Assembly: GCA_013816445.1 (NCBI GenBank)
Contig: JACDEK010000001.1
Location: 1-40,378 of the forward strand
From: Candidatus Saccharimonadota bacterium
GTDB lineage: Bacteria > Patescibacteriota > Saccharimonadia > CAILAD01 > BJGX01
Length of the DNA: 40,378 nucleotides
Reading direction: 5' to 3'
In this document: one piece after another, positions 7,896-40,378 of the stretch
Layout: the number at the start of each line of letters is the position of its first letter
How positions within the stretch are numbered: the first letter of the stretch is position 1
The notes under the pieces: model-generated
What the model saw: only the letters and a program-made list of their open reading frames with translations
Database searches by the model: none
What the model was told of the DNA's origin: nothing
Translations under genes and position numbers: made by a program

Positions 7896-7896
7896 G

Positions 7897-7905: not shown

Positions 7906-7932
7906 AGTAAGTAATTAACTAAGGAGGCTATC

Positions 7933-23823: not shown

Positions 23824-23829
23824 TATAAT
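23824..23829 (+). promoter_or_regulatory. -10 TATAAT placed 6 nt before terS ATG (leaderless arrangement)
   Basis: tagTATAATaagactATG; no SD; second TATAAT at 23793-23798. Confidence 0.4.
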
Positions 23830-23835
23830 AAGACT

Positions 23836-24300: not shown

Positions 24301-24804
24301 GTGCATTTGAGCTAGCTACACAGCTACAATACTACACAAATACACGTAATATGCCTTAGTCGCACAATACTCCAATCGAGAGAGTGCCACAATATACGGG
24401 GGTTATATCCAGTTATGTTATATATACCTATACTGCTATATGGGCTAACAGGTGTAGCTATTGACAAACATACTCATTGTATCGATAGTACACCAAGAGG
24501 GCACTACGTGTATATAGATGTATATAATGATATATATAGTTATATATGATAATGAATAGATAATGATGTTTATATTTATATGTAGAGATAAGAATTCTTT
24601 TATATAGGTGTGGGGGGTATGGGGGTACCTCGCCCAGATGTTGGGTAGATATGTATGTATATATATATATATATTATATCTCTCACACATACACGACTAC
24701 CTAAAAAAATATTAAGAACACAGAACAAAGTTCGTAAGGTATAATACAAAGGAACACAGTTTTACAACTAAGAACTGCTTCATCAGCAGCTAAGAAAGGG
24801 CGGT
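24301..24804. other. 504-bp non-coding AT-rich repeat-laden block between terS and terL (pac/ori candidate)
   Basis: No credible ORF; CACAATA(C/T) x3, ATAATGA x3, a TA-dinucleotide run (24658-24679, one interruption), G-rich GGGGGGTATGGGGGTA. Confidence 0.6.
24737..24745 (+). promoter_or_regulatory. -10 promoter AGGTATAAT upstream of terL
   Basis: Same AGGTATAATA core as at 13038. Confidence 0.4.
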
Positions 24805-26145: not shown

Positions 26146-26154
26146 TGGTATAAT
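26146..26154 (+). promoter_or_regulatory. Extended -10 promoter TGGTATAAT
   Basis: gtagTGGTATAATATAGT directly after terL stop. Confidence 0.5.
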
Positions 26155-26179
26155 ATAGTCAGAACAATAAGGAGTAATT

Positions 26180-28324
26180 TTGGCTACCAAACCTACAGAT
26201 ACAAACGATAAGAAAACAGAAGAGTCAGACGAAGTTGTTTCTAGAGTCGTAAGAGATTTTGAGACAGCATGGGAGTATACAGAGAGTTCTTACCATGGTA
26301 CTTGGGAAGACTGCTGGAAGCTCTATAATAATATTCGTACTGAAAACGGCAAAGCCTATGACGGTATTACAAATACTTTTGTACCTATGACCTTTTCTAC
26401 AATTGAAACAATGGTTTCTGCTATAGCTGGCGGTAAACCTCGTTTTGGGTATAAGCCTACTAATAAAGATCAAGAGCAAGATACAAAAGTTCTTACAGCC
26501 AAACTTGATTACTTCTGGGACTGTGATAAATGGTCTATTAAAACAATAAATTGGGTACGAAATGTTTTAATGTACGGTACAGGTGTTGTGTACTTATGGT
26601 GGGATATTGATCGCCCTCGTATGATAAATGTACCCCTAAGAGACTTTTTCATAGACCCTACAGCCTCAACCTTAGAAGATGCAGCTTTTGTAGGGAGACG
26701 TTTCCTAACGACCATAGACGAGCTTAAAACGTACGAAGTAGTAGACCCTGAAACTGGTAAGATGATGCCAATGTATAAGAACTTAGACGATATTGAGCTA
26801 AAAGATGGGGAAGCAAGCGATAATACTGGTGATCTTACAGATAAACAAGAAAAAGATATGTGGATGGGATCAACCCTAGCAAATGCTTCAGAGTGCCAGG
26901 TAGAATGTATAGAATACTGGGATCGTGATAAGGATAGAGTATGTGTTGTTGCTAATCGTTCAGTTGAGATTCGTAATGATGAGAACCCTTACAAGGTTCA
27001 AAGCCGTTCAAAGGGCAATAAACAAGCTCAAGGACTGATTCCTTTTATTGCACAGCGAAATTATACTGATGAAGCTCTATTTTATGGTAAAGGTGAAATT
27101 CAACCTATCATACAAGAACAAGAACTACTCAATGATTTAACTAACCAAACTACTGACTCTACTACTTACACTTTAAACCAGATGTACACCCTAGATCCTC
27201 AATATTCAGACTTCATAGAGAGTGTAGAGAATATACCAGGTGCGGTTTATCCTTTTGCAGCAGGCTCACTACAGCCAATCCCTAAAGGTATCGTACCCGC
27301 CGCAGCTTTTAGCCAGATAGCTAATGTAAAACAAGAAATAAGAGAAACAACTTCAGCTTCAGAAGTAGCTAAGGGTGTAGATCAGAGTGTTTCTAACGTA
27401 ACAGCTACTCAAATTCAAGCACAACAACAGTCAGCAGGACAAAGATTCGGTATTAAGCTTACTCAATTCGAAGAAGAAGGTTTCCATGACTTAGGACGAC
27501 TAGTATTCCAAATGATACAGTTATTCACTTCGGACAAACAGCAAGTACGAATGGCTGATGAGAATGGTATCTCTTGGTCTGAGTACGATCCTAAAGCATT
27601 CAAAGGTGACTATGAGCCAGAGGTAGTTCTTGCTTCTACAATAAAAGAAATAAAACAGGCAGATGACCAAAAGTCTGACGCTATATTCCAATCTATGGTT
27701 TCAAACCCCTTAATAGACCAGACTGAACTTACTAAAATGTATCTAATGAAACGATTTGATATAGATCCTGATGAAGTACAGAAACTTCTAGTACAACAAG
27801 AAGGTGCAGGAACTGATATGCCAGGAGTGCCAATGGGTATGGAGTCTGGTGGTCAACTAGGAGTACCAGGCGGAATGCCAGCACCAGATATGGGAGCTAT
27901 GCAACCAGGTATGCCACAGGGTATGCCACCAGGTATGGATATGCCACCAGAAGTTGCACAGCCAGAGATCAAAGGTTCAGACCTTATCAAGCTCTACGAC
28001 CTCACAAGTGGTCAACCAGACTTACAGGCTCAGATTGTACAGATGCTTGGTTTCGAGCCTTCACAGTACCCAGATTTACCTTACACGCAAGTTGTTATTA
28101 AAGGCGACCAAGTGATGATGGACAAAGCCCTCAAAATACAAGAAGCTGAATTAAGTCACGAACGAGCTTTAGCACAGAACCCACAAGCACCAACACCAGA
28201 GGGAATGATGGGTGTAGAAGCTCCAGGAGCTGGAATGAACCCAACTCAAGATCCAGCAATGATGTCACCAGAACAGCTACCTACCCAAGCAGATGTAGCA
28301 GGAGACATGGGCGTTGGACAATAA
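26180..28324 (+). CDS. Portal protein with P/M/G/Q-rich C-terminal extension
   Basis: AAGGAGtaattTTG; 714 aa immediately after terL; N-terminal half portal-like. Confidence 0.75.
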   Translation: MATKPTDTNDKKTEESDEVVSRVVRDFETAWEYTESSYHGTWEDCWKLYNNIRTENGKAYDGITNTFVPMTFSTIETMVSAIAGGKPRFGYKPTNKDQEQDTKVLTAKLDYFWDCDKWSIKTINWVRNVLMYGTGVVYLWWDIDRPRMINVPLRDFFIDPTASTLEDAAFVGRRFLTTIDELKTYEVVDPETGKMMPMYKNLDDIELKDGEASDNTGDLTDKQEKDMWMGSTLANASECQVECIEYWDRDKDRVCVVANRSVEIRNDENPYKVQSRSKGNKQAQGLIPFIAQRNYTDEALFYGKGEIQPIIQEQELLNDLTNQTTDSTTYTLNQMYTLDPQYSDFIESVENIPGAVYPFAAGSLQPIPKGIVPAAAFSQIANVKQEIRETTSASEVAKGVDQSVSNVTATQIQAQQQSAGQRFGIKLTQFEEEGFHDLGRLVFQMIQLFTSDKQQVRMADENGISWSEYDPKAFKGDYEPEVVLASTIKEIKQADDQKSDAIFQSMVSNPLIDQTELTKMYLMKRFDIDPDEVQKLLVQQEGAGTDMPGVPMGMESGGQLGVPGGMPAPDMGAMQPGMPQGMPPGMDMPPEVAQPEIKGSDLIKLYDLTSGQPDLQAQIVQMLGFEPSQYPDLPYTQVVIKGDQVMMDKALKIQEAELSHERALAQNPQAPTPEGMMGVEAPGAGMNPTQDPAMMSPEQLPTQADVAGDMGVGQ

Positions 28325-28523
28325 ATTTCAAGCTTATAAAGAGTTCAGAGATTCAACTTTTGGAAAAGATCTAATAAAGTGGATGGAAGATGAGTATGCT
28401 CGATGTATAAGTGAAGCTACTAAAGAAACTTCAACAGAGGTAGCTTTTGCTTTACTCAAAAAAGCCAGTGGTATAATAGTTGTGAAAGAGCATATTGACA
28501 TAATGGCTAACAACCAAAAATAG
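28314..28523 (+). CDS. Hypothetical protein (69 aa), TTG start
   Basis: Track ORF; overlaps portal stop. Confidence 0.45.
   Translation: MDNKFQAYKEFRDSTFGKDLIKWMEDEYARCISEATKETSTEVAFALLKKASGIIVVKEHIDIMANNQK
28469..28477 (+). promoter_or_regulatory. Extended -10 promoter TGGTATAAT (inside the 69-aa ORF)
   Basis: ccagTGGTATAATAGT, 138 nt upstream of the scaffold ATG. Confidence 0.4.
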
Positions 28524-28533
28524 CTAGTCAAAC

Positions 28534-28588
28534 AGAGTGTAGTAGTTCCTATTCGCCCATAGGGTCTCTACTGCACTCTATTGGGCGA
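28534..28588 (+). promoter_or_regulatory. Structured leader: 12-bp hairpin plus a competing 7-bp pairing
   Basis: AGAGTGTAGTAG (28534-45) pairs with CTACTGCACTCT (28568-79). TCGCCCA (28553-59) can pair instead with TGGGCGA (28582-88). Confidence 0.4.
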
Positions 28589-28614
28589 GCAATTTAATTT
28601 TAAGAGGAGGTTCT

Positions 28615-29424
28615 ATGGATGAACAAACCATAACCAAATCTGTTGCTCAAGAAGCAACTGGCGAAGTAAATGGAGTACCAGTGGACGATCAGTTCAATGC
28701 GATACCAGATGTTTCACAACCAGATGCTGCAACAGAAGAGGCGGGAAGTCACACCGAAGAACTCGATTCAGGCGATGATTCGGGCGAAGTTGACAACGAA
28801 ATAGCTAACGAGGAAGATTCACAACCAGAAATAGATGAAGATCTCAGTAAATGGGCTAAAGGCAAAGGGCTTGACCTAAACTCTGAATCTGAAGTAAAAC
28901 TGGCGAATATGGCTCGTGAAAGCGAAAAAGCAATGCATAGTGCTAAGGGGGAAGCTAAATCTGTACTTCAAGAAGAAGCACAAAAGATGAACCCTGATCT
29001 AGACCCAAGAGACGAAAGACTCGCAAGTTTAGAAGCAAAAGTAGCAATCAATGATTTCTATAATGCCAATCCAGATGCTCGTGATTATGACGAACAAATG
29101 GGAGAAGCATTATCTAATGACCCAGCGTTACTGGATTATGTGCGATCAACTGGTAATATCAAAGCAGTCTACAGTATTGTAAAATCTGGTACTGCAGTGA
29201 GAGATACCGAATCAGCCAAAAGAGAAGGTGGTCGAGATGCCTTGACACAGTTAGCTAATAAACAGCAAGCAGTGTCACCAAGGGGATCTGCAGTATCAAC
29301 TGCCCCGTCCTCTTCTGCGAAGATTACTCCCCAAAATGTTGACCAACTCATAAGTAAAAACGGACAAAAATGGTTCGAAAAGAATTATGAAGCAATCAAC
29401 AAAGCTTTAGACCCAACATATTAA
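28615..29424 (+). CDS. Scaffolding protein
   Basis: AGAGGAGGttctATG; acidic N-terminus, helical, between portal and capsid genes. Confidence 0.55.
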   Translation: MDEQTITKSVAQEATGEVNGVPVDDQFNAIPDVSQPDAATEEAGSHTEELDSGDDSGEVDNEIANEEDSQPEIDEDLSKWAKGKGLDLNSESEVKLANMARESEKAMHSAKGEAKSVLQEEAQKMNPDLDPRDERLASLEAKVAINDFYNANPDARDYDEQMGEALSNDPALLDYVRSTGNIKAVYSIVKSGTAVRDTESAKREGGRDALTQLANKQQAVSPRGSAVSTAPSSSAKITPQNVDQLISKNGQKWFEKNYEAINKALDPTY

Positions 29425-29458
29425 ACTATAAAGCTTTAGACCCAACATATTAAACTAT
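29401..29458. repeat. 29-bp perfect tandem duplication x2 spanning the scaffold stop codon
   Basis: aaagctttagacccaacatattaaactat at 29401-29429 and again at 29430-29458. Confidence 0.95.
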
Positions 29459-29475
29459 AATTAAAGGAGGCTATT

Positions 29476-30342
29476 ATGCCATCAGGTGCTTACGGATCAT
29501 CCAACGCTGTATCAGCAACACCAGCAGCAGTATTTCGTCCTAACGTATGGTCTAACGAAGTTCTTATGTTCGTCAAAAAGAACCTCGTTCTAGTACCACT
29601 AGTTCGTCATTACGATGCAGAAGTATCAAGTTACGGTCAGACTGTAGAAATTCCTAACGTTTCTACAATCGGTGCAGCTCTTAAAGTTGCCAACACAGGC
29701 GTGACTATTAACTACAACACAGAAACTAAAACAACTATCACATTAAACCAACACTACGAAAGTTCTTTCTTACTAGAAGACTTCGTTAAAATCCAGTCTA
29801 AGTATGATCTACGATCTGCTTACACAATGGCTGCAGCTTACGCTATAGCTGAAAAGATTGATGGTTTCATCGCTACTAACATGTCTACCTCATTCACCTC
29901 TTATGGTGCATTTGGTACTGTAATAGCAGATAGCCTAATCTTAATTGCTAACCGTTATCTTGACGATGCTAAAGCTCCACAGACTGATCGATCACTTGTT
30001 GTAACCCCACAAGGTAAACAAGAAATGCTAAATATCGATAAATATATTCGATACGATGCAATCGGAATCGGTGGAGACCGAAACAGCATCTTGACAGGAC
30101 AAATTGGTGAAATCTACGGAGTTAAAGTATTCATGAGTCAGAACCTTGTTCAGCTCGCTACTACAACACCACAGAACAACCACTTGTTCTTCCATAAAGA
30201 TGCTTTCGCAGTTGCTATCCAACAGCAATCTCGTACTCAGACCCAATACAAACAAGAATATCTTGCTTGGTTGGTAACAGTCGATATGCTATGGGGTGGT
30301 ACTGTACTACGACCAGCATTCGGTTTCAATCTTAAGTCATAA
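29476..30342 (+). CDS. Major capsid protein (HK97-fold, small podovirus type)
   Basis: AAGGAGGctattATG; 288 aa; position after scaffold; strong terminator downstream; motif pattern VWSNEVL...GQTVEIPN...AAAYAIAEKIDGF. Confidence 0.75.
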   Translation: MPSGAYGSSNAVSATPAAVFRPNVWSNEVLMFVKKNLVLVPLVRHYDAEVSSYGQTVEIPNVSTIGAALKVANTGVTINYNTETKTTITLNQHYESSFLLEDFVKIQSKYDLRSAYTMAAAYAIAEKIDGFIATNMSTSFTSYGAFGTVIADSLILIANRYLDDAKAPQTDRSLVVTPQGKQEMLNIDKYIRYDAIGIGGDRNSILTGQIGEIYGVKVFMSQNLVQLATTTPQNNHLFFHKDAFAVAIQQQSRTQTQYKQEYLAWLVTVDMLWGGTVLRPAFGFNLKS

Positions 30343-30365
30343 GACTAAGATAAAAACTACAGATT

Positions 30366-30389
30366 AGGACTCTTCGGAGTCCTTTTTTG
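30366..30389 (+). terminator. Rho-independent terminator after the capsid gene
   Basis: AGGACTC-ttcg-GAGTCCT followed by TTTTT. Confidence 0.85.
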
Positions 30390-30392
30390 TAG

Positions 30393-30401
30393 TGGTACAA
30401 T
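30393..30401 (+). promoter_or_regulatory. Extended -10 promoter TGGTACAAT
   Basis: tagTGGTACAAT immediately after the terminator. Confidence 0.45.
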
Positions 30402-30423
30402 TATAAGATAACAAGGAGATATT

Positions 30424-30624
30424 ATGCCAGCAACAATTATTTCAAGAGATACAGACACAGCAGAAAAGGTTCAAGATGAAGTTAGAAATTTACCAGCTAA
30501 CCAAGGGAAGAATGATCACGCTATGTGGCTTTTAATACATGCAGAAATAGCTACAAGTATAGCGGCTAATAAGTTAGTTCGAAATACTACATATATCCCA
30601 GCAAACAAGCACGGTGCGAAATAG
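30424..30624 (+). CDS. Hypothetical protein (66 aa)
   Basis: AAGGAGatattATG. Confidence 0.6.
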   Translation: MPATIISRDTDTAEKVQDEVRNLPANQGKNDHAMWLLIHAEIATSIAANKLVRNTTYIPANKHGAK

Positions 30625-30627
30625 TAT

Positions 30628-30656
30628 TTGACATATCTCCATAAGCGGTTTATTAT
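30628..30656 (+). promoter_or_regulatory. Near-consensus promoter TTGACA-17-TATTAT
   Basis: Counted: -35 at 30628-33, 17-nt spacer, -10 at 30651-56. Confidence 0.6.
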
Positions 30657-30684
30657 TTAGATATAACAACTTAAGGAGGCGAAT

Positions 30685-31020
30685 ATGTTTGATAAGAAAT
30701 ACAAAAGTCCACTAGAATTTGACAAAGCACTAACAAAAGAGCTTGGATTAACAGGGGAACTAAACTCAAGCCTAGATGCAAAACTCGTCTATGTTAAGTC
30801 TCAAATAGAGCAGTTTAAGCAGATGATCATTCGTTATGAGTTTGACATACTGCTCACTAATAATCTAATAAATCATGAAGTAGAAGCTTTCCAAGCTAAA
30901 GGGCGTGAAAACCAATCATCTTTTATAAGCGATGCAAAACAATCAACTGCAGCACTTAAAACTATGATTCAGTTACGAGACGAGCTAGAGGCAGAAAAAG
31001 AAAAAGTAAAGAAGAAGTAG
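30685..31020 (+). CDS. Coiled-coil protein (111 aa)
   Basis: AAGGAGGcgaatATG. Confidence 0.6.
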   Translation: MFDKKYKSPLEFDKALTKELGLTGELNSSLDAKLVYVKSQIEQFKQMIIRYEFDILLTNNLINHEVEAFQAKGRENQSSFISDAKQSTAALKTMIQLRDELEAEKEKVKKK

Positions 31021-31026
31021 GCTAAT

Positions 31027-31821
31027 GTGGGTGATACATTAGCTGTAGTCCTACCAAGTAGGGGACTCTTATTTAGTGAAACTCTAGAGGAGTTGCTAAA
31101 TGAGTTAGAGGGCTTTAAGTACAAAATATTCTGGTCACACGCCAGATCATTACCAGACTGTTTTAATATCCCAACTGAAGAAGCACTGAAAGATCCAAGT
31201 ATCTTTGCAGTGCTTTTTGCTGAAGACGATATGATCTTACCTAAAGGGGTGCTTAAGAAGATGTTTGGTATGAACTACCCAGTAGTAGCCCTAGACTATC
31301 CATTTAGAAATAATGGTGATTCAACTATGTGGCACGACCCAGAGGGATTTGTCTTATGGTCTGGTACAGGGTTCTTACTAGTAGCCAAGCAGGTATTAGA
31401 GAATATGCAGAAACCAATTTGGATAACAAACACCACATGGGATACTATGGTCAAACAAGACCGAGTGTATATATGGCCTCGTAAGCTTACTAAGGTAGCC
31501 TATGGTCTACATGATGTGAACTTTGGTATGACTCTCTACTCACAGGGATTAAGAATAAAGGACGTAGAAATGGAAGGCGGGCAACGTAAACTTCGTAAAT
31601 TAGGCAGAGCTAAAGTAAACAACGGAGCTCACGATATTAAGGAACTTAACAAAATAGGTAGAGATCTTGTAATAAAAACAACTGACCCAAGAAAGATTGC
31701 TATATTCAAGCAGGCTTTAAGTAGGATTAGAAGTATTGAATTATGTGCAGAAGCACCTGACTTCATTGAGTATGTAGATGGGCAAGCTACCGTAAGAGGA
31801 GAAGAACATGAAACAGTCTGA
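31027..31821 (+). CDS. Divergent GT-A-like glycosyltransferase candidate, paralog 1
   Basis: LAVVLPSRGLLFSETLEE...FAEDDMILP (DxD-like)...YGLHDVNFG...GGQRKL...NNGAHDI; about one-third identical by eye to 32085..32951. Confidence 0.45.
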   Translation: MGDTLAVVLPSRGLLFSETLEELLNELEGFKYKIFWSHARSLPDCFNIPTEEALKDPSIFAVLFAEDDMILPKGVLKKMFGMNYPVVALDYPFRNNGDSTMWHDPEGFVLWSGTGFLLVAKQVLENMQKPIWITNTTWDTMVKQDRVYIWPRKLTKVAYGLHDVNFGMTLYSQGLRIKDVEMEGGQRKLRKLGRAKVNNGAHDIKELNKIGRDLVIKTTDPRKIAIFKQALSRIRSIELCAEAPDFIEYVDGQATVRGEEHETV

Positions 31822-31822
31822 T
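31798..31822. repeat. 25-bp direct repeat copy 1 (GGAGAAGAACATGAAACAGTCTGAT)
   Basis: Identical to 32075..32099; contains SD, ATG and the first 5 codons. Confidence 0.95.
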
Positions 31823-32098
31823 ATGAACGAAATAAAGGGTATAGACACTGTAGAGCTTATTGATTTTAGACACCTGAAAGAAGTAACACCTACGTTAATA
31901 ATGATTGCAAGACTTAAGTATACTAGTGCTAAAGGCATACTTCTTAGTGACGCAGTAGCACAGAACATACTCAACCTTGATATGCTCGTAGTAAATGATG
32001 AAAACCATCCTAAATATAACTCTACATACTGTGACATAAAGATTTACGCCGAATTAGACAAAAGGATAACAGATGGAGAAGAACATGAAACAGTCTGA
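31808..32098 (+). CDS. Small cassette-like ORF (96 aa) bracketed by the 25-bp repeats
   Basis: Begins MKQSD like paralog 2 and ends GEEHETV-stop like paralog 1. Confidence 0.5.
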   Translation: MKQSDMNEIKGIDTVELIDFRHLKEVTPTLIMIARLKYTSAKGILLSDAVAQNILNLDMLVVNDENHPKYNSTYCDIKIYAELDKRITDGEEHETV

Positions 32099-32099
32099 T
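32075..32099. repeat. 25-bp direct repeat copy 2
   Basis: Identical to 31798..31822. Confidence 0.95.
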
Positions 32100-32951
32100 C
32101 AATGGCTCGCAAAACAGCGTACAAAAGTTGGGGTTATACTACCAAGTCGTGGGTTGATATTCTCCCAGACAGCAGAAGAAATAGTAACAAACGTACAGGG
32201 TGTACGGCACAAGTTCTTTTTCGCTCATAAACTCCCTATACCAGAGTGCTTTGAAACACCTACTAGACGAGCTTTACAGGACAAGACAATTACCCATCTA
32301 TGGTTTGTAGAAGACGATATGATTCTACCGCCAGATGTACTCAAAAGTCTTGTAGATGCAGATAAGGAGTCTATAGCTTGTAACTACCCAGTTAATAATC
32401 AGGGTAGAGATGCAATGCTTATAGATGCAGAAGGACGAGTAGTATTCTCTGGCACAGGTTGTTTGTTAGTTAAACGAGCTGTATTCGAGAGAATGAAGAA
32501 ACCCTACTTCAGAACTGACATAGGCTGGCAAGGGCATAACTATGAAAACTTTATCAAGCTTATATCATCTAAGTCTCGCAAAGATAATCGCTATGGCTTG
32601 CATGATGTTACATTCGGAGTGCAACTCTACAAAGAGGGTAGACCAATTATAAAATCACCTATCTTGCTAGGTCAGAGAAAACTTGTAGCACTTGGTCAAG
32701 CAGGTACAAATGACGGTGCTCATCAAATAGAGGAGTGGACAGAAGTAAACGAGAATACAATGTATAACGAGATACGATCATATCCAGCCAAACCAGTAGG
32801 ATCACTAGTGACTGTAATGATAAATGGCATAGAGTCACCCATGATGGATGCAAAGCACGCAGCCATGCTTATGGAGAAGAAGGGTGCAACGCCCCCACCT
32901 AAGAGAAGCGTAATCATAGACGATAGTGCGGAGTTGTTATGGATCTCTTAA
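32085..32951 (+). CDS. Divergent GT-A-like glycosyltransferase candidate, paralog 2
   Basis: GGAGAAGaacATG; VGVILPSRGLIFSQTAEE...FVEDDMILPP...YGLHDVTFG...LGQRKL...NDGAHQI (track start 32073 is the same frame). Confidence 0.45.
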   Translation: MKQSDQWLAKQRTKVGVILPSRGLIFSQTAEEIVTNVQGVRHKFFFAHKLPIPECFETPTRRALQDKTITHLWFVEDDMILPPDVLKSLVDADKESIACNYPVNNQGRDAMLIDAEGRVVFSGTGCLLVKRAVFERMKKPYFRTDIGWQGHNYENFIKLISSKSRKDNRYGLHDVTFGVQLYKEGRPIIKSPILLGQRKLVALGQAGTNDGAHQIEEWTEVNENTMYNEIRSYPAKPVGSLVTVMINGIESPMMDAKHAAMLMEKKGATPPPKRSVIIDDSAELLWIS

Positions 32952-33667
32952 TTGTAATCATTACCTATAACCGCCTTGAATACACAAAACGTACAATACA
33001 AGATTTACTAGATACAATAAAGATACCTCACTATATCCTTGTAGTGGATAACGCATCTACAGATGGCACTCCTGAATACTTAGAAAAGTTACTAGATAAA
33101 AAGAAAATAGATGGGCTAGTTTTAAATGACGAGAACTACTATCCTGGCAAAGCTTGCAACATTGGTTGGGAGGAGGGATTAGAAGCTTATCCACAAGCAA
33201 CTCACCTTATGAGATTAGACAACGACTTTGTACTCTTAAAGGGCTGGGATACTACAGCAGAAAAATACTTTGACAAGATAGACAATCTTGGTCAACTTGG
33301 ACTAGACTATGATGCTATAAAAGATAATAAAGAACATGAAAAAGAATACAACGGTATGATATTGAACCACTGGCCAGGTGTGGTTGGTGGAGTAAATATC
33401 ATACCTAAAGGGCTCTGGGATCTAGGTATACGTTACGAGGAAACTCGCTGGATAAAGAAATGGGAGGGTATCAGCTCACCACAAGAGGACTCAGCACTCT
33501 CTAATAATATCAAAAGCTGGGGATTCTTAGTGGGGCATATGCAAGAGAAGCTTGCTTGGACGTTTGCAGATGAAACCAACTGGTCAGATTATCCAGATTA
33601 TTATATTAAGACTATGAGCGAGCGTGGATACGACGACCTAGTCAGAAAGATAAAAGGTAAAAAATGA
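32939..33667 (+). CDS. Family-2 glycosyltransferase
   Basis: LLIVIITYNRLEYTKRTIQDLL...ILVVDNASTDGT...RLDNDF. Confidence 0.75.
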   Translation: MDLLIVIITYNRLEYTKRTIQDLLDTIKIPHYILVVDNASTDGTPEYLEKLLDKKKIDGLVLNDENYYPGKACNIGWEEGLEAYPQATHLMRLDNDFVLLKGWDTTAEKYFDKIDNLGQLGLDYDAIKDNKEHEKEYNGMILNHWPGVVGGVNIIPKGLWDLGIRYEETRWIKKWEGISSPQEDSALSNNIKSWGFLVGHMQEKLAWTFADETNWSDYPDYYIKTMSERGYDDLVRKIKGKK

Positions 33668-34770
33668 AAGTAGCAACAATACTAGGTACTCGACCTGAAC
33701 TTATTAAGATGTCTGAAATTATTAAAAAACTAGACAAACATACAAACCACATACTTATCCACACTGGTCAGAATTATGACTTTGAACTAGGCGGTATATT
33801 CTATGAAGAACTTGGAGTAAGGAAGCCAGACTATGTGTGTGAATTAATTGGGGATAACTTACACGAAAAGATAGCTTCTATAATCGCTGCAACAGGCGAG
33901 GTATTAGCAAAAGAGAAACCAAACGCAGTTGTTATACTCGGTGATACCAATAGTTCACTAGCAGCATATATGGCTAAACGATTAAAGATACCAGTGTTCC
34001 ACCTAGAAGCTGGCAATAGATGCTTTGACGATAATGTACCTGAAGAAGTAAACCGTAGAATAATTGATCATATAAGTGATGTGAATATGGTGTACTCAGA
34101 AAACAGTCGACAGAACTTAATAGCTGAAGGCATAGCAAGGGATCGTATATTTACTATGGGCTCACCAATGCAAGAGATAATCGATACCCACGCTGGTAAG
34201 ATTGCAAAGAGCGATATACTACCCTACTTAGGAGTTGATGAGAATAAATACTTTGTAGCTAGTATCCACAGAGAAGAAAACGTAGATAACACGAACAACC
34301 TTAGTGAGATAGTTAAGTCACTAAACAAAATAGCAACTCTATATAACATACCAGTCATACTATCTGCTCACCCTCGTATGCTCGACAGAATGGAAAAGAA
34401 TAAGTTTGTTCTTGATGATAGGGTAATAGTACATAAACCATTTGGTTTCTTTGACTACATGAAACTCCAGATGAACTCTAAGTGTGTAATCAGTGATAGC
34501 GGTACAATATCTGAAGAAAGCTCTATAATGGGTTTTCCTGCAATAACCCTACGCAATACCATTGAAAGACCTGAAGTCATTGATGTGGGCGGTATGCTTA
34601 TCACTAGTATCAATATGATTAACATCCTGGACTGTTTAAAGGTAGCTACAAGCGACTTTGAAGCTTCACCCACACCAACAGCCTATGACATAGATAACTG
34701 CTCTGATAGGGTACTTAAAACAGTTCTTAGCTATACTCCGTATGTGAATAGATATGTGTGGAACAAATGA
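33664..34770 (+). CDS. UDP-N-acetylhexosamine 2-epimerase (WecB/FnlC/CapG family)
   Basis: ILGTRPELIKM...GDTNSSL...HLEAGNRCFD..VPEEVNRRIIDHISD...ERPE. Confidence 0.85.
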   Translation: MKVATILGTRPELIKMSEIIKKLDKHTNHILIHTGQNYDFELGGIFYEELGVRKPDYVCELIGDNLHEKIASIIAATGEVLAKEKPNAVVILGDTNSSLAAYMAKRLKIPVFHLEAGNRCFDDNVPEEVNRRIIDHISDVNMVYSENSRQNLIAEGIARDRIFTMGSPMQEIIDTHAGKIAKSDILPYLGVDENKYFVASIHREENVDNTNNLSEIVKSLNKIATLYNIPVILSAHPRMLDRMEKNKFVLDDRVIVHKPFGFFDYMKLQMNSKCVISDSGTISEESSIMGFPAITLRNTIERPEVIDVGGMLITSINMINILDCLKVATSDFEASPTPTAYDIDNCSDRVLKTVLSYTPYVNRYVWNK

Positions 34771-35705
34771 AGATAGCAGTTATAGGTGGTACAGGAAGCT
34801 TTGGTAAAGCTTTTGTAAAACGCTACTACAAGAAACACAAGATAACTGTTATTAGTAGAGATGAAGCAAAACAGCATGAAATGAGATTAGAGTACCCAGA
34901 TGTTGCTTACAAGATAGGTGATATTAGGGACAGAGAGAGAATGTTTGAACTTTTAAAGGGCTTTGATTGTATCTTTCAGGCAGCAGCTCTTAAACAAGTA
35001 CCCTCATGTGAGTTTTTCCCAATGGAAGCTGTTAAAACGAACATACTCGGAACGAACAATGTCATAGACGCTTCTGATGGGGCTAAGGTAGTCTGTCTAT
35101 CGACTGACAAGGCAGTATACCCCATAAACGCTATGGGTATCTCAAAAGCTATGATGGAGAAAGTAGCAATCTCTAAAGGGGCTATAGTTACTCGGTACGG
35201 TAATGTAATGCGTTCACGAGGCTCAATAATACCTATATGGGAATTAGCGGCAATAGATAACCAACCAATAAACATAACCAATCCTGATATGACTAGATTT
35301 CTTATGAGCTTAGATGACTCAATAGATCTAGTAATGTTCGCTATGAGAAAAGGTAAGCCAGGTAACATATTTGTCAAGAAAGCCCCAGCTTCTACTATGC
35401 AAGACTTAGCTAAAGCTGTCGTGAATACATTGGGTGATCTTATACCTGAATCCCCACCAGTTAACGTAATAGGTACTCGGCATGGGGAGAAGATGCACGA
35501 AACTCTTATAAGTCAGGAAGAAATGTATAGAACTGATGATATGGGCGATTTCTATAGAGTGAACCCAGACGGTAGGGATATGAACTACGATAAATACTTC
35601 ACTAAAGGCAAACAAGAAAAACCACCTGAAGCATACACTTCAGAGAATACAGAGCAACTAAATGTATTAGATGTTGAGGATCTGCTTTATGAAGCTAAGA
35701 GGTAA
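34767..35705 (+). CDS. UDP-GlcNAc 4,6-dehydratase/epimerase (CapD/FnlA/CapE/PseB family SDR)
   Basis: ATGA overlap; IGGTGSFGKAF...SRDEAKQHEM...GDIRDRERM...AAALKQVPSCEFFPMEAVKTNILGTNN. Confidence 0.8.
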   Translation: MKIAVIGGTGSFGKAFVKRYYKKHKITVISRDEAKQHEMRLEYPDVAYKIGDIRDRERMFELLKGFDCIFQAAALKQVPSCEFFPMEAVKTNILGTNNVIDASDGAKVVCLSTDKAVYPINAMGISKAMMEKVAISKGAIVTRYGNVMRSRGSIIPIWELAAIDNQPINITNPDMTRFLMSLDDSIDLVMFAMRKGKPGNIFVKKAPASTMQDLAKAVVNTLGDLIPESPPVNVIGTRHGEKMHETLISQEEMYRTDDMGDFYRVNPDGRDMNYDKYFTKGKQEKPPEAYTSENTEQLNVLDVEDLLYEAKR

Positions 35706-36453
35706 GATACTTTTACTTGGTTCTACAGGTATGGCAGGGCATACAATAAAACTCTACTTGGAAAAAGTAGGCTATCAGGTGGATACATTACATATGAGAA
35801 TACCAAGAGATATGAATTATCTAAGCCATGTTTATGAGTATGATGTGGTAATAAACTGTATTGGTATGCTTGTAAAAGAAAGCGAAATAGACCATGACAA
35901 GACAGTATTCGTGAATTCTTATCTACCCCAGTATCTAGCTAAGAGAGCTAAGAAGCTTATACACCTTAGTACAGATTGCGTGTTTGACGACAATTTCTAT
36001 GGGCGTAGCAAGGCTTTAGGTGAGGTAGTTAATGATAAAGACCTTACACTACGAATGTCAATTATAGGGGCTGATATGAAGCCAGGGGGTACAGGATTAT
36101 TTAATTGGTTTATGCAACAAGAGGGTGAAGTAGATGGATATAGTGAAGCTCTGTGGAATGGCATTACAACCCTTGAACTGGCTAAGGTTATAGATGAGGC
36201 TATTAAGCAAGATCTAACAGGTCTATATTCACCATTACCAAAATCACCTACAAATAAATACAAATTACTCTATATGATAAGAAAAGTATTTAATAAGGAT
36301 ATTGGCATAAAACTAGTAGAAAAGGGAGATGATAAGGTATTGGCTGAAACTAGAAAAGACTTTGAATACGAAAACAAAAGCTATGAGAAAATGCTAACTG
36401 AAATGAAGGAGTGGATTGATGAACACACAGAACTATACCCGCAATACCGCTAA
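35689..36453 (+). CDS. SDR-family sugar-nucleotide reductase (RmlD/FnlB-like)
   Basis: MKLRGKILLLGSTGMAGH Rossmann N-terminus; YGRSKALGE (YxxxK); follows the dehydratase. Confidence 0.55.
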   Translation: MKLRGKILLLGSTGMAGHTIKLYLEKVGYQVDTLHMRIPRDMNYLSHVYEYDVVINCIGMLVKESEIDHDKTVFVNSYLPQYLAKRAKKLIHLSTDCVFDDNFYGRSKALGEVVNDKDLTLRMSIIGADMKPGGTGLFNWFMQQEGEVDGYSEALWNGITTLELAKVIDEAIKQDLTGLYSPLPKSPTNKYKLLYMIRKVFNKDIGIKLVEKGDDKVLAETRKDFEYENKSYEKMLTEMKEWIDEHTELYPQYR

Positions 36454-37156
36454 GGAATGTGCCCTAAAGATAGAGAGAGCCGTTAAACACAGAGAGCCAT
36501 TTAGACATTTAGTTATAGATAGATTCTTACCAACAGCTATGGCTGATAGATGTTTAGAGGATTTTCCACACGAGAATACTAACATATGGGATATATCTAA
36601 TGATGATGTAGAGATCAAAATGAGATCTAAGTTTGATTCAGAGTTTGATTTTCCAGGTGAACTGGCGAATGTAGTACGAATACTCAACTCATCTATAATC
36701 TTAAAAGCTATGGCAGAGGCTATTGGGATAACAAAGCTGATACCAGACCCTTATTTTACTGGTGGTGGATTGAACCTGATGACTGAAGGTGGTGCTTTAG
36801 ATGTGCACATAGACGGCAACTATCACGATGCTATGAGGTTAAACAGAAGATTGAATGCAATCCTATTCTTAAACCCTAAGTGGAAAAAGCATATGGGTGG
36901 AGAGTTTGGACTGTACAATAAAAGTGGAACTATACTAAGAAAATCCATTGAGCCTATAATGAACAGATTAGTTATATTTGATACACATGATGAGTCATAT
37001 CATGGAATACCATCACCTATAAGCTTTGATAGACGATCTTTGATACTCTACTACTATACGGTCGAACCAAGACAGCACATGGTTATATCTGAACCTCACA
37101 GTGCTCTATGGAGAAAAAAAGACTTTACTGATAAGAAAGGAAATAAAACACGATGA
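36419..37156 (+). CDS. 2OG-Fe(II) oxygenase (prolyl-4-hydroxylase-like)
   Basis: AAGGAGtggattgATG; LDVHIDGN (HxD) ... NRLVIFDTHDESYHG (distal His) ... RRSL. Confidence 0.65.
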   Translation: MNTQNYTRNTAKECALKIERAVKHREPFRHLVIDRFLPTAMADRCLEDFPHENTNIWDISNDDVEIKMRSKFDSEFDFPGELANVVRILNSSIILKAMAEAIGITKLIPDPYFTGGGLNLMTEGGALDVHIDGNYHDAMRLNRRLNAILFLNPKWKKHMGGEFGLYNKSGTILRKSIEPIMNRLVIFDTHDESYHGIPSPISFDRRSLILYYYTVEPRQHMVISEPHSALWRKKDFTDKKGNKTR

Positions 37157-37659
37157 TATATGACGATCTTTACACAGATGAAACCTATAATCTACCGAAT
37201 ACTTTTAGAATAAACAAAGTGTATGAATGGGTAAAAAATTACAAATCCATCTTATATGTAGGCTGTGGTCAAGGTAACTATCTTAAGCACATGGACGATA
37301 AAGGACTTAATGTATCGGGTATCGAACTGAGTCAAGAAGCTTGTAGTAAGCTAAAAGGCTATAAGGTGGTGAACATAGACCTACTGCATTACAAAGGTAA
37401 GTATGATGCTTTGTACTGTATGGACGTTTTAGAGCACATAGAGCCTACTGAGATAGACGATAATCTAAAGAATCTTACATCTATAGCCCCCCATGCTTTA
37501 CTGGGCATAGCTAATCATTCTGATGTGTGCAGGGGTGTAGAGCTACATCTAATACAGGAGAACGCTGAGTGGTGGTGGGAACTATTAAGTAAGTATTATA
37601 AGAAAGTAGAACTATCTTGGATTGAAGATAGATTCTTTGCGTTCGAATGTTCTCTATAG
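37153..37659 (+). CDS. Class I SAM-dependent methyltransferase
   Basis: ILYVGCGQGNYL (motif I), DALYCMDVLEHI. Confidence 0.65.
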   Translation: MIYDDLYTDETYNLPNTFRINKVYEWVKNYKSILYVGCGQGNYLKHMDDKGLNVSGIELSQEACSKLKGYKVVNIDLLHYKGKYDALYCMDVLEHIEPTEIDDNLKNLTSIAPHALLGIANHSDVCRGVELHLIQENAEWWWELLSKYYKKVELSWIEDRFFAFECSL

Positions 37660-38333
37660 TAGTACCAATTGATCCTAATAGGTTACGTCAGTTTGAGTAC
37701 ACTAAACGAGAGTACGATAAAATGCCACAAGAAAAAGAACTTATTTTGGTGACTCGTAATGAATGTAATATAAAAAAATACCTAAAAAGATACCAGTTGG
37801 AAAAAGATGTAAGAGTAATACCCTATAAGTTTCTTGATGGGTTCAATTGTAGTATGGCTCTTAATATTGGAGTCAGGGAATCTAAGTACGACAATATAAT
37901 AATCACATCACCAGAAGTAAAGCCAGCACCAGATGTACTGGATAAGCTCGAACAGTCTATAGGTACAAACATAATATGTCAGGTGGCAGATGAATTAGAG
38001 GGTGGTGATATTGGACAAATACTCGTATATCATGGGTTTAGAGATGAATCACCAGCGATGTATTTCTTGGCAATGTTCAAGAAAAATGATATAGCTAGAA
38101 TAAACGGGTGGGACGAGGAGTTCATGAAAGGGTATGCTTATGAGGATAATGACTTCGGGGCACGTTGGGTACGAGCAGGGATTCCGTTTGAAATACGAGA
38201 AGACATTAAGGCAGTTCACCAATACCACCCTAGGTCTGAAACTAAACCTGGTGGAGCAGGAATTAACTACCAGCATTTTGGTGATAATAACCAGAATGTA
38301 GTTATTAGATGTAAAAATGGTCTAATGTTATAA
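37647..38333 (+). CDS. GT-A fold glycosyltransferase (GT2/galactosyltransferase-like)
   Basis: FSIVVPIDPNR...; GWDEEFMKGYAYEDNDFGARWVRAG. Confidence 0.55.
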   Translation: MFSIVVPIDPNRLRQFEYTKREYDKMPQEKELILVTRNECNIKKYLKRYQLEKDVRVIPYKFLDGFNCSMALNIGVRESKYDNIIITSPEVKPAPDVLDKLEQSIGTNIICQVADELEGGDIGQILVYHGFRDESPAMYFLAMFKKNDIARINGWDEEFMKGYAYEDNDFGARWVRAGIPFEIREDIKAVHQYHPRSETKPGGAGINYQHFGDNNQNVVIRCKNGLML

Positions 38334-38340
38334 TTAAGCT

Positions 38341-39351
38341 ATGAATAACGATAATATTCAAAAAGCCTATGAGGACAGGAAACAGGCCGAACTAGCCAAG
38401 CAAGATAAGGCTAGGCTTAGTGACCTACACAAAGATAAGCTCGTTGGTAATGATAGAGTGCAAAATGCAGTCATTAAATCTGCTATGGCAATTATTGAAG
38501 CACACTCAATTCATGAGCCTAAGGTAGCAGTAAAAAATTTAGGTAAGTTAGCTAAGAATAAAAGCCTATTAGATATAAACGAAGCAATATCTAGCTCAGA
38601 AAAGACTAGTAAACAAAACACAAAGCAACTCATAAATAGTGTAAACAAACTTATAGAGGTAGTAGATGCTATTCCTAAAGAGAACCCTGAGCTACCAGAT
38701 CCAGTAGAAGTAGTCAAAATAAACAACCTAAAAGACATAGAGCCAGCTCTAAATAAGATAACAGCAGCAGTCAATAAACTAAAGCTCAGCCCTGTATTTG
38801 ACCCTAAAATCACTGTTTCACCAGCAAATGTTAATGTCACTGAAGAAAAAGTTGATGTAAAACCAATAGTTGATTCTATTGAGAAACTTAAACCACTACT
38901 GAAAGATATAAAGAATAGTTCTACTAAAGTAGAGTTTACAGACTTAATAAACTCTGTGAATGCTACAACTGAGGCTATAAGCTCTCTATCTTTCCCAGTA
39001 CCAAACTATATACTCCCATTTACTTACAACGGTAAGGCAACTCAAGCAGCAGTTGATAGTACGGGGGCAATTATAAGTGGTGGTGATACAACTCTCCAAA
39101 ATCTTACAGACCAACTAGCTCATCTCATTAACAAGCTATCATTCTTATCTGGTGTGCAAGGTGTTGCTGCTGATATTAGGGTGACCATGCTCTCAGGAAC
39201 TATCACTACTGTCACGACTGTTTCAACCGTAACTACCGTAGGTACAGTAACTAACCAGACCAACATCGGTGGCTACGCTGCCACAAACACAATCATGAAT
39301 CAGATGAATACCAACGCTAATCAACTAAGACAACAAATAATCACCAATTAG
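38341..39351 (+). CDS. Virion-module protein with T/V-rich C-terminal tract (336 aa)
   Basis: Track ORF; ...LSGTITTVTTVSTVTTVGTVTNQTN... Confidence 0.6.
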   Translation: MNNDNIQKAYEDRKQAELAKQDKARLSDLHKDKLVGNDRVQNAVIKSAMAIIEAHSIHEPKVAVKNLGKLAKNKSLLDINEAISSSEKTSKQNTKQLINSVNKLIEVVDAIPKENPELPDPVEVVKINNLKDIEPALNKITAAVNKLKLSPVFDPKITVSPANVNVTEEKVDVKPIVDSIEKLKPLLKDIKNSSTKVEFTDLINSVNATTEAISSLSFPVPNYILPFTYNGKATQAAVDSTGAIISGGDTTLQNLTDQLAHLINKLSFLSGVQGVAADIRVTMLSGTITTVTTVSTVTTVGTVTNQTNIGGYAATNTIMNQMNTNANQLRQQIITN

Positions 39352-39359: not shown

Positions 39360-40378
39360 ATGGCTACTACGAATACATTACAAAAAACGCTAGACCGAAA
39401 AACTTGGGAGTTTATGACACCTGTCCCAGTAGCAACGCTGGCTGGGTCACACGTTATATCCTCTAACTCTGAAGACCCTTACGCACTACAGATGTATATA
39501 GTCTCTACGACAGCTCAATACCTGTTTCTACCTAAAGAAGATGCTTGGCTACAAATAGCCACAGTTACACTTGGAGGTACTTTATCTGCTGGTGCTACTG
39601 GAACGTATGTCTCTGTTGGCCCAACAGGTACGGCTACGGCTGGTTCTGCTACAACCATGACAACCAACCTCACTATTCCAGGTTCATTAGTTGGGTACAC
39701 TGTCAGAATCACGGCTGGGGCTGGTGCAGGTCGTCAAGCTACAATCTTATACAACACAACTGGTGCAAACGCAGTCTTTACATTTACCGCTTCGGGAACA
39801 GTCCTAGACGCTACTTCTGTCTATGAAATACGCTCAGGCAGGTTCTACGTCTGGAACGCTGGTACAATGTCAGCTACTTCCTTCCAATACTACGATGTTG
39901 CAACTAATACATGGACAGCTCGCTCAGTTACCTCAGCTCCAGCGACTTTCGCTACTGACGGTAAAATGATTTCTACCTCTGGTGTTTCACAATTTGTAAC
40001 AGGTACAGCCACCGCTGGTGCTGCTTCAACACTAACTAACAGTGCAAAAACTTGGACAGTGAACCAATGGACTAACTATCAGATACGCCTAACTGGTGGA
40101 ACAGGTGCAGGGCAAAAGAGAGTCATAGCTTCTAACACAGGAACAATTATAACTACTACGGCAATCTGGACGATTAACCCTGATGCTACTTCTACTTACG
40201 TTATTGAGGGTGATGAGAACGCCATCTACCTACTAGGGAACGCTGTTGTGACGCTGTTTAAGTATTCAATCTCTGGTAACTCATGGTCTACACTTACTCC
40301 TGGTGCTGCTAGGGCTGGTGCTGCTGGTCTTGCTACTTCTGGTCAGTGGGTACGCAGACAACCAGAAGCTGACTGGAC
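39360..40378 (+). CDS. N-terminal part of junction-spanning Kelch-like repeat virion protein (continues at base 128 after the overlap is collapsed)
   Basis: AGGAGacactATG at 39360; open to the window end; not in the track because it has no in-window stop. Confidence 0.8.
   Translation, partial: MATTNTLQKTLDRKTWEFMTPVPVATLAGSHVISSNSEDPYALQMYIVSTTAQYLFLPKEDAWLQIATVTLGGTLSAGATGTYVSVGPTGTATAGSATTMTTNLTIPGSLVGYTVRITAGAGAGRQATILYNTTGANAVFTFTASGTVLDATSVYEIRSGRFYVWNAGTMSATSFQYYDVATNTWTARSVTSAPATFATDGKMISTSGVSQFVTGTATAGAASTLTNSAKTWTVNQWTNYQIRLTGGTGAGQKRVIASNTGTIITTTAIWTINPDATSTYVIEGDENAIYLLGNAVVTLFKYSISGNSWSTLTPGAARAGAAGLATSGQWVRRQPEADW
40252..40378. repeat. Terminal direct repeat copy 2 (identical to 1..127)
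   Basis: Direct comparison of both window ends. Confidence 0.95.

Follow-up and report, generated by a model that had tools for sequence, protein, structure and literature searches.

The window analysed here, the whole 40,378-nucleotide (nt) contig JACDEK010000001.1 of assembly GCA_013816445.1, is the complete circular genome of an uncultured podophage, and between its major capsid gene and its fibre genes lies an island of ten co-oriented plus-strand open reading frames (ORFs; O1–O10, 31027–38333) that we interpret as a glycan-biosynthesis locus. The two ends of the window are identical (1–127 and 40252–40378, 127 nt), which indicates a circular assembly of a complete genome of ~40.25 kb (about 40,251 bp). 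The proteins deposited at NCBI (MBA3678613-27) are labelled only as hypothetical proteins or '2OG-Fe(II) oxygenase'. The island and its immediate surroundings are listed below (aa, amino acids; GT, glycosyltransferase; UDP, uridine diphosphate; HexNAc, N-acetylhexosamine; GlcNAc, N-acetylglucosamine; 2OG, 2-oxoglutarate; P4H, prolyl 4-hydroxylase; SAM, S-adenosylmethionine); the 90 related loci and the near-identical relative L091 are described further on.

29476–30342 (+): major capsid protein, left-hand landmark of the island (phrog_267, E = 8e-42; Pfam Phage_capsid_2, E = 7e-13)
30366–30383 (+): terminator-like GC-rich hairpin with T-run, directly 3' of the capsid gene (consensus scan and direct reading; consensus match only)
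30424–30624 (+): s66, small ORF with homologues in 17 of 90 loci, not in L091
30628–30656 (+): sigma-70-like promoter match, the best in the scan (TTGACA-17-TATTAT; 11 of 12 consensus positions), 5' of s111 and the island
30685–31020 (+): s111, conserved small gene; 62 of 90 loci have a homologue, in every case located between capsid gene and O1
31027–31821 (+): O1, predicted GT-A-fold transferase, conserved core, paralogue of O3 by sequence (PSRG, EDD, YGLHD and NxGAH motifs)
31798–31822 (+): left copy of an exact 25-nt direct repeat bracketing O2
31808–32098 (+): O2, 96 aa, on a 277-nt insert, without family match
32073–32951 (+): O3, predicted GT-A-fold transferase, conserved core, likely start 32085 (structure model and Foldseek)
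32075–32099 (+): right copy of the exact 25-nt direct repeat bracketing O2
32939–33667 (+): O4, family-2 glycosyltransferase (GT2), conserved core (PF00535 Glycos_transf_2, E = 5e-13)
33664–34770 (+): O5, WecB-type UDP-HexNAc 2-epimerase, variable cassette (PF02350 Epimerase_2, E = 2e-81; TIGR00236)
34758–35705 (+): O6, FnlA/CapE-type UDP-GlcNAc 4,6-dehydratase/5-epimerase, variable cassette (PF02719 Polysacc_synt_2, E = 2e-79)
35671–36453 (+): O7, RmlD-like reductase, variable cassette (PF04321 RmlD_sub_bind)
36416–37156 (+): O8, 2OG/Fe(II) oxygenase with P4H-like fold, variable and dispensable (PF13640 2OG-FeII_Oxy_3, E = 5e-15)
37153–37659 (+): O9, SAM-dependent methyltransferase, variable and dispensable (PF13489 Methyltransf_23, E = 6e-10)
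37647–38333 (+): O10, GT-A transferase, variable cassette (Glyco_transf_7C, E = 1.5e-6)
38341–39351 (+): p336, fibre-like protein of 336 aa whose C-terminus has a T/V-rich tract; right-hand landmark, candidate acceptor
39360–40378, continuing across the circular junction to 518 (+): Kelch-motif fibre gene, 469 aa, S/T/G/A-rich (Kelch motifs; terminal overlap and frame)

All ten ORFs named in an initial annotation of this DNA are present on the plus strand and take up 7,307 of ~40,251 nt, i.e. the 18% of the genome it had estimated, and their PHROGs and Pfam neighbours agree with the position it gave them within the late structural block, between capsid and fibre genes. Its statement that most genes overlap by 1–13 nt was roughly right: with longest-ORF calls the nine junctions overlap by 14, 26, 13, 4, 13, 35, 38, 4 and 13 nt, so that five of them are within 13 nt and the other four span 14–38 nt. 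Placing the O3 start at 32085, where the NCBI model has it, shortens the O2/O3 overlap from 26 to 14 nt. O1 begins 685 nt past the capsid gene stop, with a gap of 6 nt on its 5' side, and 7 nt follow O10; an ORF listed at 282–518 is the tail of the 469-aa Kelch fibre gene. Profile and structure searches back nine of the ten enzyme assignments (O1 and O3–O10) with matches far beyond chance, the exception being the small ORF O2. The content originally proposed for the island, a complete 6-deoxy-HexNAc donor pathway with four transferases and two tailoring enzymes, is supported. What the initial annotation overlooked is a layout found across the whole lineage, in which a conserved O1-O3-O4 core is followed by a hypervariable cassette.

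O1 and O3 are, on sequence grounds, paralogues (42% identity over 210 aa, E = 4e-57), which together with the GT-A fold matched by the AlphaFold model of O3 (pLDDT, predicted local distance difference test, 93) agrees with their earlier description as two divergent GT-A paralogues. Neither protein has a family match in Pfam, NCBIfam or PHROGs; faint GT2-like matches occur in 3/38 homologues and sporadic Pfam glycosyltransferase matches among distant relatives. A sequence search with O3 against the PDB returned a chance antibody match only. Foldseek matches of the model (template modelling score, TM, 0.35–0.6) include STIV A197, the GT domain of LH3, GlfT2, COLGALT1, mimivirus R699 and many GT-A proteins of viruses and uncultured phages. 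In a 38-member alignment of the O1/O3 family, PSRG, E-D-D, YGLHD and N-G-H motifs are invariant. The DxD-type motif of O3 directly follows strand 75–79, with E80 and D82 invariant and D81 conserved in at least 90% of members, and the corresponding stretch of O1 reads FAEDDMILP. Since fold, motifs and paralogy converge, yet no curated family matches, we regard O1 and O3 as predicted transferases of an unclassified GT-A family. O3 has at least 579 homologues, all without a protein name and many on contigs of 30–43 kb, and an exhaustive profile search with the O3 family yielded 1,429 representatives at 50% identity (E ≤ 1e-3). At the same time, neither tblastn with O3 against 50,697 GenBank phage genomes nor a near-identity search of the GenBank phages with island DNA gave any match, in line with the earlier remark that no characterised small tailed phage was known to combine such genes in its late operon. 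Across 185,579 species genomes O3 was found at seven loci, all in phage context.

The genes following O4 encode a set of nucleotide-sugar enzymes. O5 (368 aa) scores 236 bits on the wecB model TIGR00236, above the cut-off of 210, with the proviso that this model cannot separate UDP-GlcNAc from UDP-L-RhaNAc (RhaNAc, N-acetylrhamnosamine) as substrate. O6 (315 aa) matches FnlA-type 4j2o (E = 2e-91), CapE (E = 3e-88) and Mg534 (4tqg; E = 6e-44) in the PDB. O7 (260 aa) reaches 29.9 bits on PF04321 against a cut-off of 27 bits, has the RmlD-like structure 2ggs as its sole PDB sequence match, and is 29–48% identical to the RmlD-like gene of bacterial cassettes. It showed no match to a cupin (PF14667) and none to CapF in the PDB, and the lack of a CapF-type cupin makes a route to N-acetylfucosamine (FucNAc; FnlABC/CapEFG) less likely; eleven relatives carry a stand-alone PF14667 CapF-type cupin (u9) where the window has O7. 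O10 matches chondroitin synthase 2z87 in the PDB (E = 3e-4). Taken together, O5–O7 predict a pathway of the UDP-L-RhaNAc/L-QuiNAc type (QuiNAc, N-acetylquinovosamine), for which WbvB/WbvR/WbvD of V. cholerae and Mg534/Mg535/Mg536 of Megavirus serve as comparison pathways (PMC9614988). Among the top 120 homologues of O6, the phage FnlA genes form a separate clade of shorter proteins (~300 aa) on contigs of up to ~44 kb, many of them phage-sized, and the existence of this separate clade suggests that the cassette has long resided in phages and is no recent capture. No donor taxon or host emerged from these closest homologues, as all 120 lie on small contigs, none longer than ~44 kb.

O8 proved to be linked to sugar genes. 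Its residues H131, D133, H196, R206 and S208, which make up the HxD...H and RxS motifs for the iron and 2OG ligands, are invariant, and its fold is P4H/OGFOD1-like (matches to OGFOD1, PasI, PolD, Tpa1 and PHD2). PDB sequence matches are to PolD, OGFOD1 and P4H enzymes, with PolD as the nearest solved relative. PasI, one of the top fold matches, was solved with an octosyl-acid nucleoside phosphate bound, and both PolD and PasI are Fe/2OG enzymes acting on sugar-nucleoside substrates. Homologues of O8 in three bacterial genomes (54–57% identity) all lie within polysaccharide clusters; two of the three directly adjoin FnlA-like, RmlD-like and WecB-like genes, and one cluster has a Wzm/Wzt exporter (L172). 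When bacterial and metagenomic loci with adequate flanks were considered together (n=52, from loci labelled L171, L172 and L173–L252), adjacent and co-oriented FnlA-like, WecB-like and RmlD-like genes were present in 44/52, 44/52 and 42/52, respectively. We therefore predict that O8 is a sugar-tailoring enzyme acting on a 6-deoxy-L-HexNAc, and that it does not produce a hydroxyproline acceptor on the portal. Hydroxylation of a deoxy-sugar carbon by a 2OG oxygenase has a precedent in KdoO. A literature search found no published description of an O8-type fourth gene in 6-deoxy-L-HexNAc cassettes, and the presence of such a gene would imply that this pathway has an oxidative step not yet described, or that it leads to a new rare sugar. 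A hydroxylase-methylase pair formed by O8 and O9 was also considered as the main link, as the two co-occur in 3/3 phage loci and are deleted jointly in L091. It was rejected in view of the bacterial and metagenomic loci, only 1/52 of which has an O9-type methylase against 42–44/52 with the pathway genes.

To place the island among its relatives, 90 loci were gathered by similarity to O3 and annotated locally, and a second sample, which avoids circularity, was drawn with a capsid-protein profile (61 loci with capsid identity of 57–96% and enough downstream sequence). O1 was present in 60/61 and O3 in 59/61 of the capsid-sampled relatives, and O4 in 55/56 of those with at least 3.5 kb downstream, always between capsid/s111 and the fibre genes. 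Gene tables of two relatives give the same order of terminase, SU10 portal, scaffold, capsid, small gene, O1-like, O3-like, GT2, differing sugar genes, fibres and adaptor. Downstream of the capsid gene in 24 remoter capsid relatives (33–39% identity) there was no homologue of any island gene. What follows O4 is highly variable, with ~36 architectures in the 48 islands closed by a structural gene; p336 homologues (270–772 aa, variable in length) close the island in 23 loci. Cassette parts in relatives include short-chain dehydrogenases/reductases of the GDP-mannose-dehydratase type, RmlC-like and FdtA/CapF-type cupins, a sugar C-methyltransferase, UDP-glucose dehydrogenase, an RmlA-like nucleotidyltransferase, small methyltransferases, and DXD-type and family-2 transferases. 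The cassette type of the window (WecB, FnlA, RmlD-like, 2OG oxygenase, methyltransferase, O10) also occurs in L084 and L108. In closed islands a wecB-like gene is accompanied by an O10-type transferase in 14/14 cases and the C-methyltransferase by the GT2 u12 in 6/6, counts that ignore kinship between the phages. We conclude that the island is the local form of a layout shared throughout a large family of uncultured phages.

Two natural variants bear on which parts of the island can be lost. L091, an IMG/VR contig, is 95–99% identical to window positions 23557–38371 and lacks three segments: one with s66 (30390–30627), the 277-nt O2 stretch, of which exactly one copy of the 25-nt repeat remains, and 36528–37626, i.e. 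most of O8 and nearly all of O9, with O7 and O10 left intact. O2, O8 and O9 are thus dispensable accessories in an otherwise identical island. L091 also carries, between its portal and scaffold genes (5038–7050), a 2-kb insert with a 446-aa Thr-rich ORF that has no counterpart in the window. L305 (IMGVR_UViG_3300050516_000013, 3841–8137) is the one member of the lineage in which the island was not found; capsid, small gene, s111, adaptor and nozzle follow one another there, with the fibre genes also gone from the site.

The 25-nt repeat around O2 spans the stop codon of the preceding gene, a GGAG ribosome-binding site and the ATG of the following one, and this content explains why O1 and O2 end alike (...GEEHETV) and O2 and O3 begin alike (MKQSD). 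O2 gave no family match in profile searches and had no homologue in the 90 related loci. Unrelated small ORFs occupy the O1/O3 junction in five relatives (L125, L130, L143, L155 and L157), which gives the junction the look of a hot spot for insertions. As for expression, the hairpin behind the capsid gene and the promoter match before s111 suggest that s111, the island and the fibres form a transcription unit of their own. Promoter-like sites as a whole are not enriched relative to shuffled sequence, and the 11/12 site is a single lead.

The structural block outside the island is of podophage type, with the following members recognised by PHROGs and Pfam:

23836–24300: small terminase
24805–26145: large terminase
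26180–28324: SU10-type portal
between the portal and capsid genes: scaffold-like protein
past the circular junction: Gly-rich and fibre proteins
2801–3442: SU10-type adaptor
downstream of the fibre genes, with the SU10-type adaptor: nozzle-like protein, 649 aa

The portal is 714 aa long in the window, compared with 560–589 aa in the relatives L081 and L082, and its C-terminal 170 residues (27800–28324) form a low-complexity tail rich in P/G/M/Q. Early genes on the minus strand include a RecB-like exonuclease, NinG, a C5 DNA methylase and HNH nucleases. The C5-cytosine DNA methyltransferase gene (17764–18561, −), whose match is limited to the N-terminal motifs, would imply that the phage DNA is methylated. 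There are two HNH endonuclease genes (7978–8397, +; 15748–16368, −), one of them inside the structural block immediately upstream of a gene for a 1320-aa protein (9076–13038). In that protein, which may be an ejected internal virion protein, an LPD38 'large polyvalent protein' domain (E = 9e-25) and a match to phrog_9854 were recognised. PHROGs and Pfam searches of the complete genome found no integrase, DNA polymerase or thymidylate-synthase homologue, and no tRNA genes were found.

With regard to the host, four of the eight genome-binned members of the lineage (the window, L085, L087 and L089) fall in Saccharibacteria/Saccharimonadales bins of independent studies, and the others in bins of Limisphaerales, Bdellovibrionales, Methylotenera and an unclassified bacterium. 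The L082/L087 phage lies within a 163-kb contig of a Saccharibacteria bin (GCA_964507855.1, CAZDQS010000002.1, 112950–133765 of 163242), which may be a prophage or a mis-join. The four Saccharibacteria-binned members hint at a host from the Candidate Phyla Radiation (CPR), binning being weak evidence. Assignment of a host or family through the capsid protein was uninformative, with only ~29% identity to podophages of filamentous cyanobacteria.

We suggest, with a probability of roughly 0.55, that the island is a soluble, late-expressed, two-module system glycosylating virion proteins, either capsid or fibres. O1, O3 and O4 would link the inner portion of a glycan to a conserved acceptor in the cytoplasm and lengthen it there, the acceptor being most likely a protein of the virion surface (the fibres, whose genes come next, or the capsid protein), and the O5–O10 cassette would supply an outer, strain-specific sugar. 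Judging by homology to WbvB/R/D and Mg534–536, from which we infer the sugar products, O6 would convert host UDP-GlcNAc to UDP-4-keto-6-deoxy-L-IdoNAc, O7 would reduce this 4-keto-6-deoxy-L intermediate to UDP-L-RhaNAc, and O5 would 2-epimerise the latter to UDP-L-QuiNAc. O8 would then add an oxidative tailoring step and O9 would methylate, perhaps O-methylating as in the 4-OMe-L-RhaNAc of Megavirus fibrils, while O10 would be the cognate transferase of the cassette sugar. The order of transfer and the acceptor we infer as well. At the level of enzymes and locus architecture, that is, of gene identities, fold, conservation, cassette variability, the linkage of O8 and the dispensability of O2, O8 and O9, the glycosylation reading is well supported. 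Virion proteins are favoured as acceptors for several reasons: the core is a constant feature of the lineage, its genes sit between those for capsid and fibres, the promoter-like site ahead of s111, which follows the terminator-like hairpin, may serve them, and in L305 the loss of the island coincides with that of the fibre genes. We rank the fibres (p336, which has the T/V tract, and the S/T/G/A-rich Kelch fibre) slightly above the capsid as candidates; the initial annotation had named the T/V tract and the Pro-rich portal tail as possible acceptors, and both are indeed present in the sequence. Several points weigh against our reading. No discriminating acceptor motif was found in the S/T-rich tracts or the capsid termini, and S/T-rich tracts are a general feature of fibre and nozzle proteins. 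Nor do the profile scores fix the sugar product, since O6 scores 350 bits (E = 1.5e-104) on the FnlA model TIGR04130, below its 730-bit equivalog cut-off, and the WecB model is blind to substrate. Further to that, the 14/14 and 6/6 co-occurrence counts ignore shared ancestry, L305 is a single case, and soluble GT2 enzymes can act on lipid-linked host glycans at the inner membrane face. Sugar genes of CPR and other phages are, moreover, read as host-surface auxiliary genes in the metagenomic literature (PMC12647753).

The last two points lead to a serious rival, which we nevertheless consider unlikely: that the enzymes remodel the host surface during infection by modifying an envelope polysaccharide, a teichoic-acid-like polymer or a surface protein (S-layer, pilin), with possible effects such as a superinfection block, progeny that do not stick to debris, or altered attachment of the episymbiont to its partner cell. 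The cassette genes do resemble bacterial O-antigen and capsule genes (about 50% identity) and come in the same sets, and surveys interpret phage glycosyltransferase and nucleotide-sugar genes in this way (PMC12647753). For none of the ten island proteins is a membrane segment predicted (hydropathy over 19 residues peaks at 1.46, against a threshold of 1.6), an absence that is not decisive given that O-antigen transferases are in many cases soluble or peripheral themselves. In the relatives' 487 island genes, however, there was no multi-pass membrane protein and no initiating transferase (phosphoglycosyltransferase), flippase, polymerase, ABC exporter or Gtr-type membrane protein, so the system would be unable to build a surface polymer alone. 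Host-surface remodelling also fits poorly with a core trio that is fixed across the lineage and lies between the head and the tail genes instead of standing apart as a moron, with the absence of any integrase or lysogeny module from the complete genome as searched, and with the finding of O1/O3 homologues in no cellular polysaccharide locus among the 185,579 species genomes. Still less probable, in our estimate, is that the target is a cytoplasmic host protein or small molecule, e.g. a defence or metabolic factor to be inactivated, and not the virion. The solubility of all island enzymes would suit such a role, as would the example of the baculovirus ecdysteroid glucosyltransferase, which modifies a host small molecule (PMC9614988). 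Four transferases and a hypervariable rare-sugar cassette are nevertheless hard to justify for one target, and a late structural position speaks against a function in host takeover.

We give each of the remaining two explanations very little credence. In one, O8 hydroxylates a proline or lysine of a virion protein, for instance in the Pro-rich portal tail, and so creates the acceptor site. Skp1, collagen and mimivirus L230 are analogues of hydroxylation followed by glycosylation. The P4H/OGFOD1/PHD fold of O8 with its HxD...H and RxS motifs, the collagen hydroxylysine transferases LH3 and COLGALT1 among the fold matches of O3, and the P/G/M-rich portal C-terminus all speak for this model, whose hydroxylation half was part of the initial annotation. 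That half is not supported: 42–44/52 O8 loci lie next to FnlA/RmlD/WecB genes inside O-antigen-type clusters, the nearest solved relative PolD acts, like PasI, on sugar-nucleoside substrates, and O8, found in only 3/90 islands, is deleted along with O9 in the 95–99% identical phage L091, which retains all four transferases. In the other, the transferases glycosylate hydroxylated pyrimidines of phage DNA and thereby evade restriction. RB69 and DLP3 do encode a nucleotide-sugar pathway and transferases for DNA (PMC13326640), and the C5-cytosine methyltransferase and O8 resemble, on paper, a route from 5-methylcytosine (5mC) via 5-hydroxymethylcytosine (5hmC) to the glycosylated base. Genome-wide PHROGs and Pfam searches, however, found no thymidylate-synthase homologue, TET/JBP-family oxygenase, deoxynucleoside monophosphate (dNMP) kinase or DNA polymerase, and DNA is an unlikely target because the genome lacks the hydroxylated-pyrimidine enzyme that known DNA-glycosylating phages need. 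O8 is, besides, P4H-like and belongs to a bacterial polysaccharide cassette, it is missing from nearly all relatives in which the transferases are still there, and the genes sit in the structural, not the replication, block.

Extending virion glycosylation from this genome to its relatives, we tentatively propose, at somewhat less than even odds, that a large, as yet uncultured lineage of podophages, whose hosts may be Saccharibacteria, puts a glycan on its own fibres or capsid, with a new family of protein glycosyltransferases (O1/O3, together with the GT2) building the inner glycan and the outer sugars being swapped between phages like O-antigen serotypes. To our knowledge, virion glycosylation in tailed phages has been shown for mycobacteriophages only, where it shields particles from antibodies. 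If our proposal is true, a virion 'glyco-serotype' locus would take 10–18% of a 40-kb genome, and self-glycosylation would be a core, fast-diversifying trait of an abundant environmental phage lineage. As there is no vertebrate immune system to evade, other selective forces would come into view, such as receptor binding, protection from enzymes of hosts or grazers, or imitation of the host's surface. The habit of labelling phage sugar genes as host-directed 'auxiliary metabolic genes' would also be called into question, and a new transferase family with at least 1,429 representatives at 50% identity would be added. The bacterial 6-deoxy-L-HexNAc pathway would gain in O8 an uncharacterised fourth step, an oxidation, and O8 would be a candidate enzyme for a new rare sugar in bacterial O-antigens. 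With four of eight binned members in Saccharibacteria, the locus could bear on the biology of CPR phages.

A close functional parallel lies in mycobacteriophages. Virion glycosylation in Che8, Corndog and Myrna was reportedly described by Freeman et al. in 2023 in Cell Host Microbe, and the transferase and methyltransferase genes of these phages lie beside capsid genes in the late operon. Common to both is a phage-encoded system with transferase genes near capsid genes; there the glycans sit on virion subunits, whereas here we propose the acceptor from the locus. As far as the summary of earlier work in PMC12619734 goes, it is the C-termini of capsid and tail-tube subunits that are glycosylated. 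There is no sequence homology between the two systems (O3 tblastn against the 50,697 GenBank phages), only a weak structural echo in Ardmore gp87 (E = 2.6e-3), and unlike the mycobacteriophages the podophage lineage has a fixed three-transferase core and its own full nucleotide-sugar pathways. STIV A197, the best structural match of O3 (E = 4.6e-6, TM 0.51 on target), shares the GT-A core and a DxD-type motif; identity is 16%, and O1/O3 have extra C-terminal elements and the PSRG, YGLHD and NxGAH motifs.

On the pathway side, the Mg534–Mg539 cluster of Megavirus chilensis includes a UDP-L-RhaNAc/L-QuiNAc pathway for fibril glycans, among them 4-OMe-RhaNAc (PMC9614988). The enzymes are similar in type and size (323, 270 and ~370 aa for Mg534/535/536 against 315, 260 and 368 aa for O6/O7/O5), and the Megavirinae likewise have adjacent transferases, methylated RhaNAc and clade-specific variable clusters decorating fibres. 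The six-gene Mg534–Mg539 cluster lists no 2OG oxygenase (PMC9614988), whereas the island in the window has O8. Megavirinae are also giant eukaryotic viruses with unrelated transferases, and O6 is nearer to bacterial FnlA/CapE than to Mg534 (E = 2e-91 against 6e-44). Bacterial O-antigen and capsule cassettes (WbvB/WbvR/WbvD of V. cholerae O37; FnlABC/CapEFG) have homologous enzymes at ~30–55% identity, and bacterial 6-deoxy-L-HexNAc cassettes share with the phage island the four-gene set including the O8-type oxygenase; the bacterial loci add exporters (Wzm/Wzt in L172), while the phage island encodes soluble enzymes only. Initiating transferases are also carried by bacterial polysaccharide loci. 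Seroconversion modules (GtrABC, Oac) are membrane proteins encoded beside the lysogeny module of temperate phages. They too are phage-encoded means of glycan modification, and differ from the island in the window, which lies in the structural block and has neither predicted membrane segments nor an accompanying integrase. The arabinosyl-5-hydroxycytosine (5hoC) system of RB69 and DLP3 resembles it in combining a phage nucleotide-sugar pathway with transferases, but needs a thymidylate-synthase homologue and phage replication genes (PMC13326640), none of which were found here. What is new relative to the mycobacteriophage and giant-virus systems is the transferase family, the combination of a fixed core with an O-antigen-like cassette, and the commitment of up to 18% of a small podophage genome to it.

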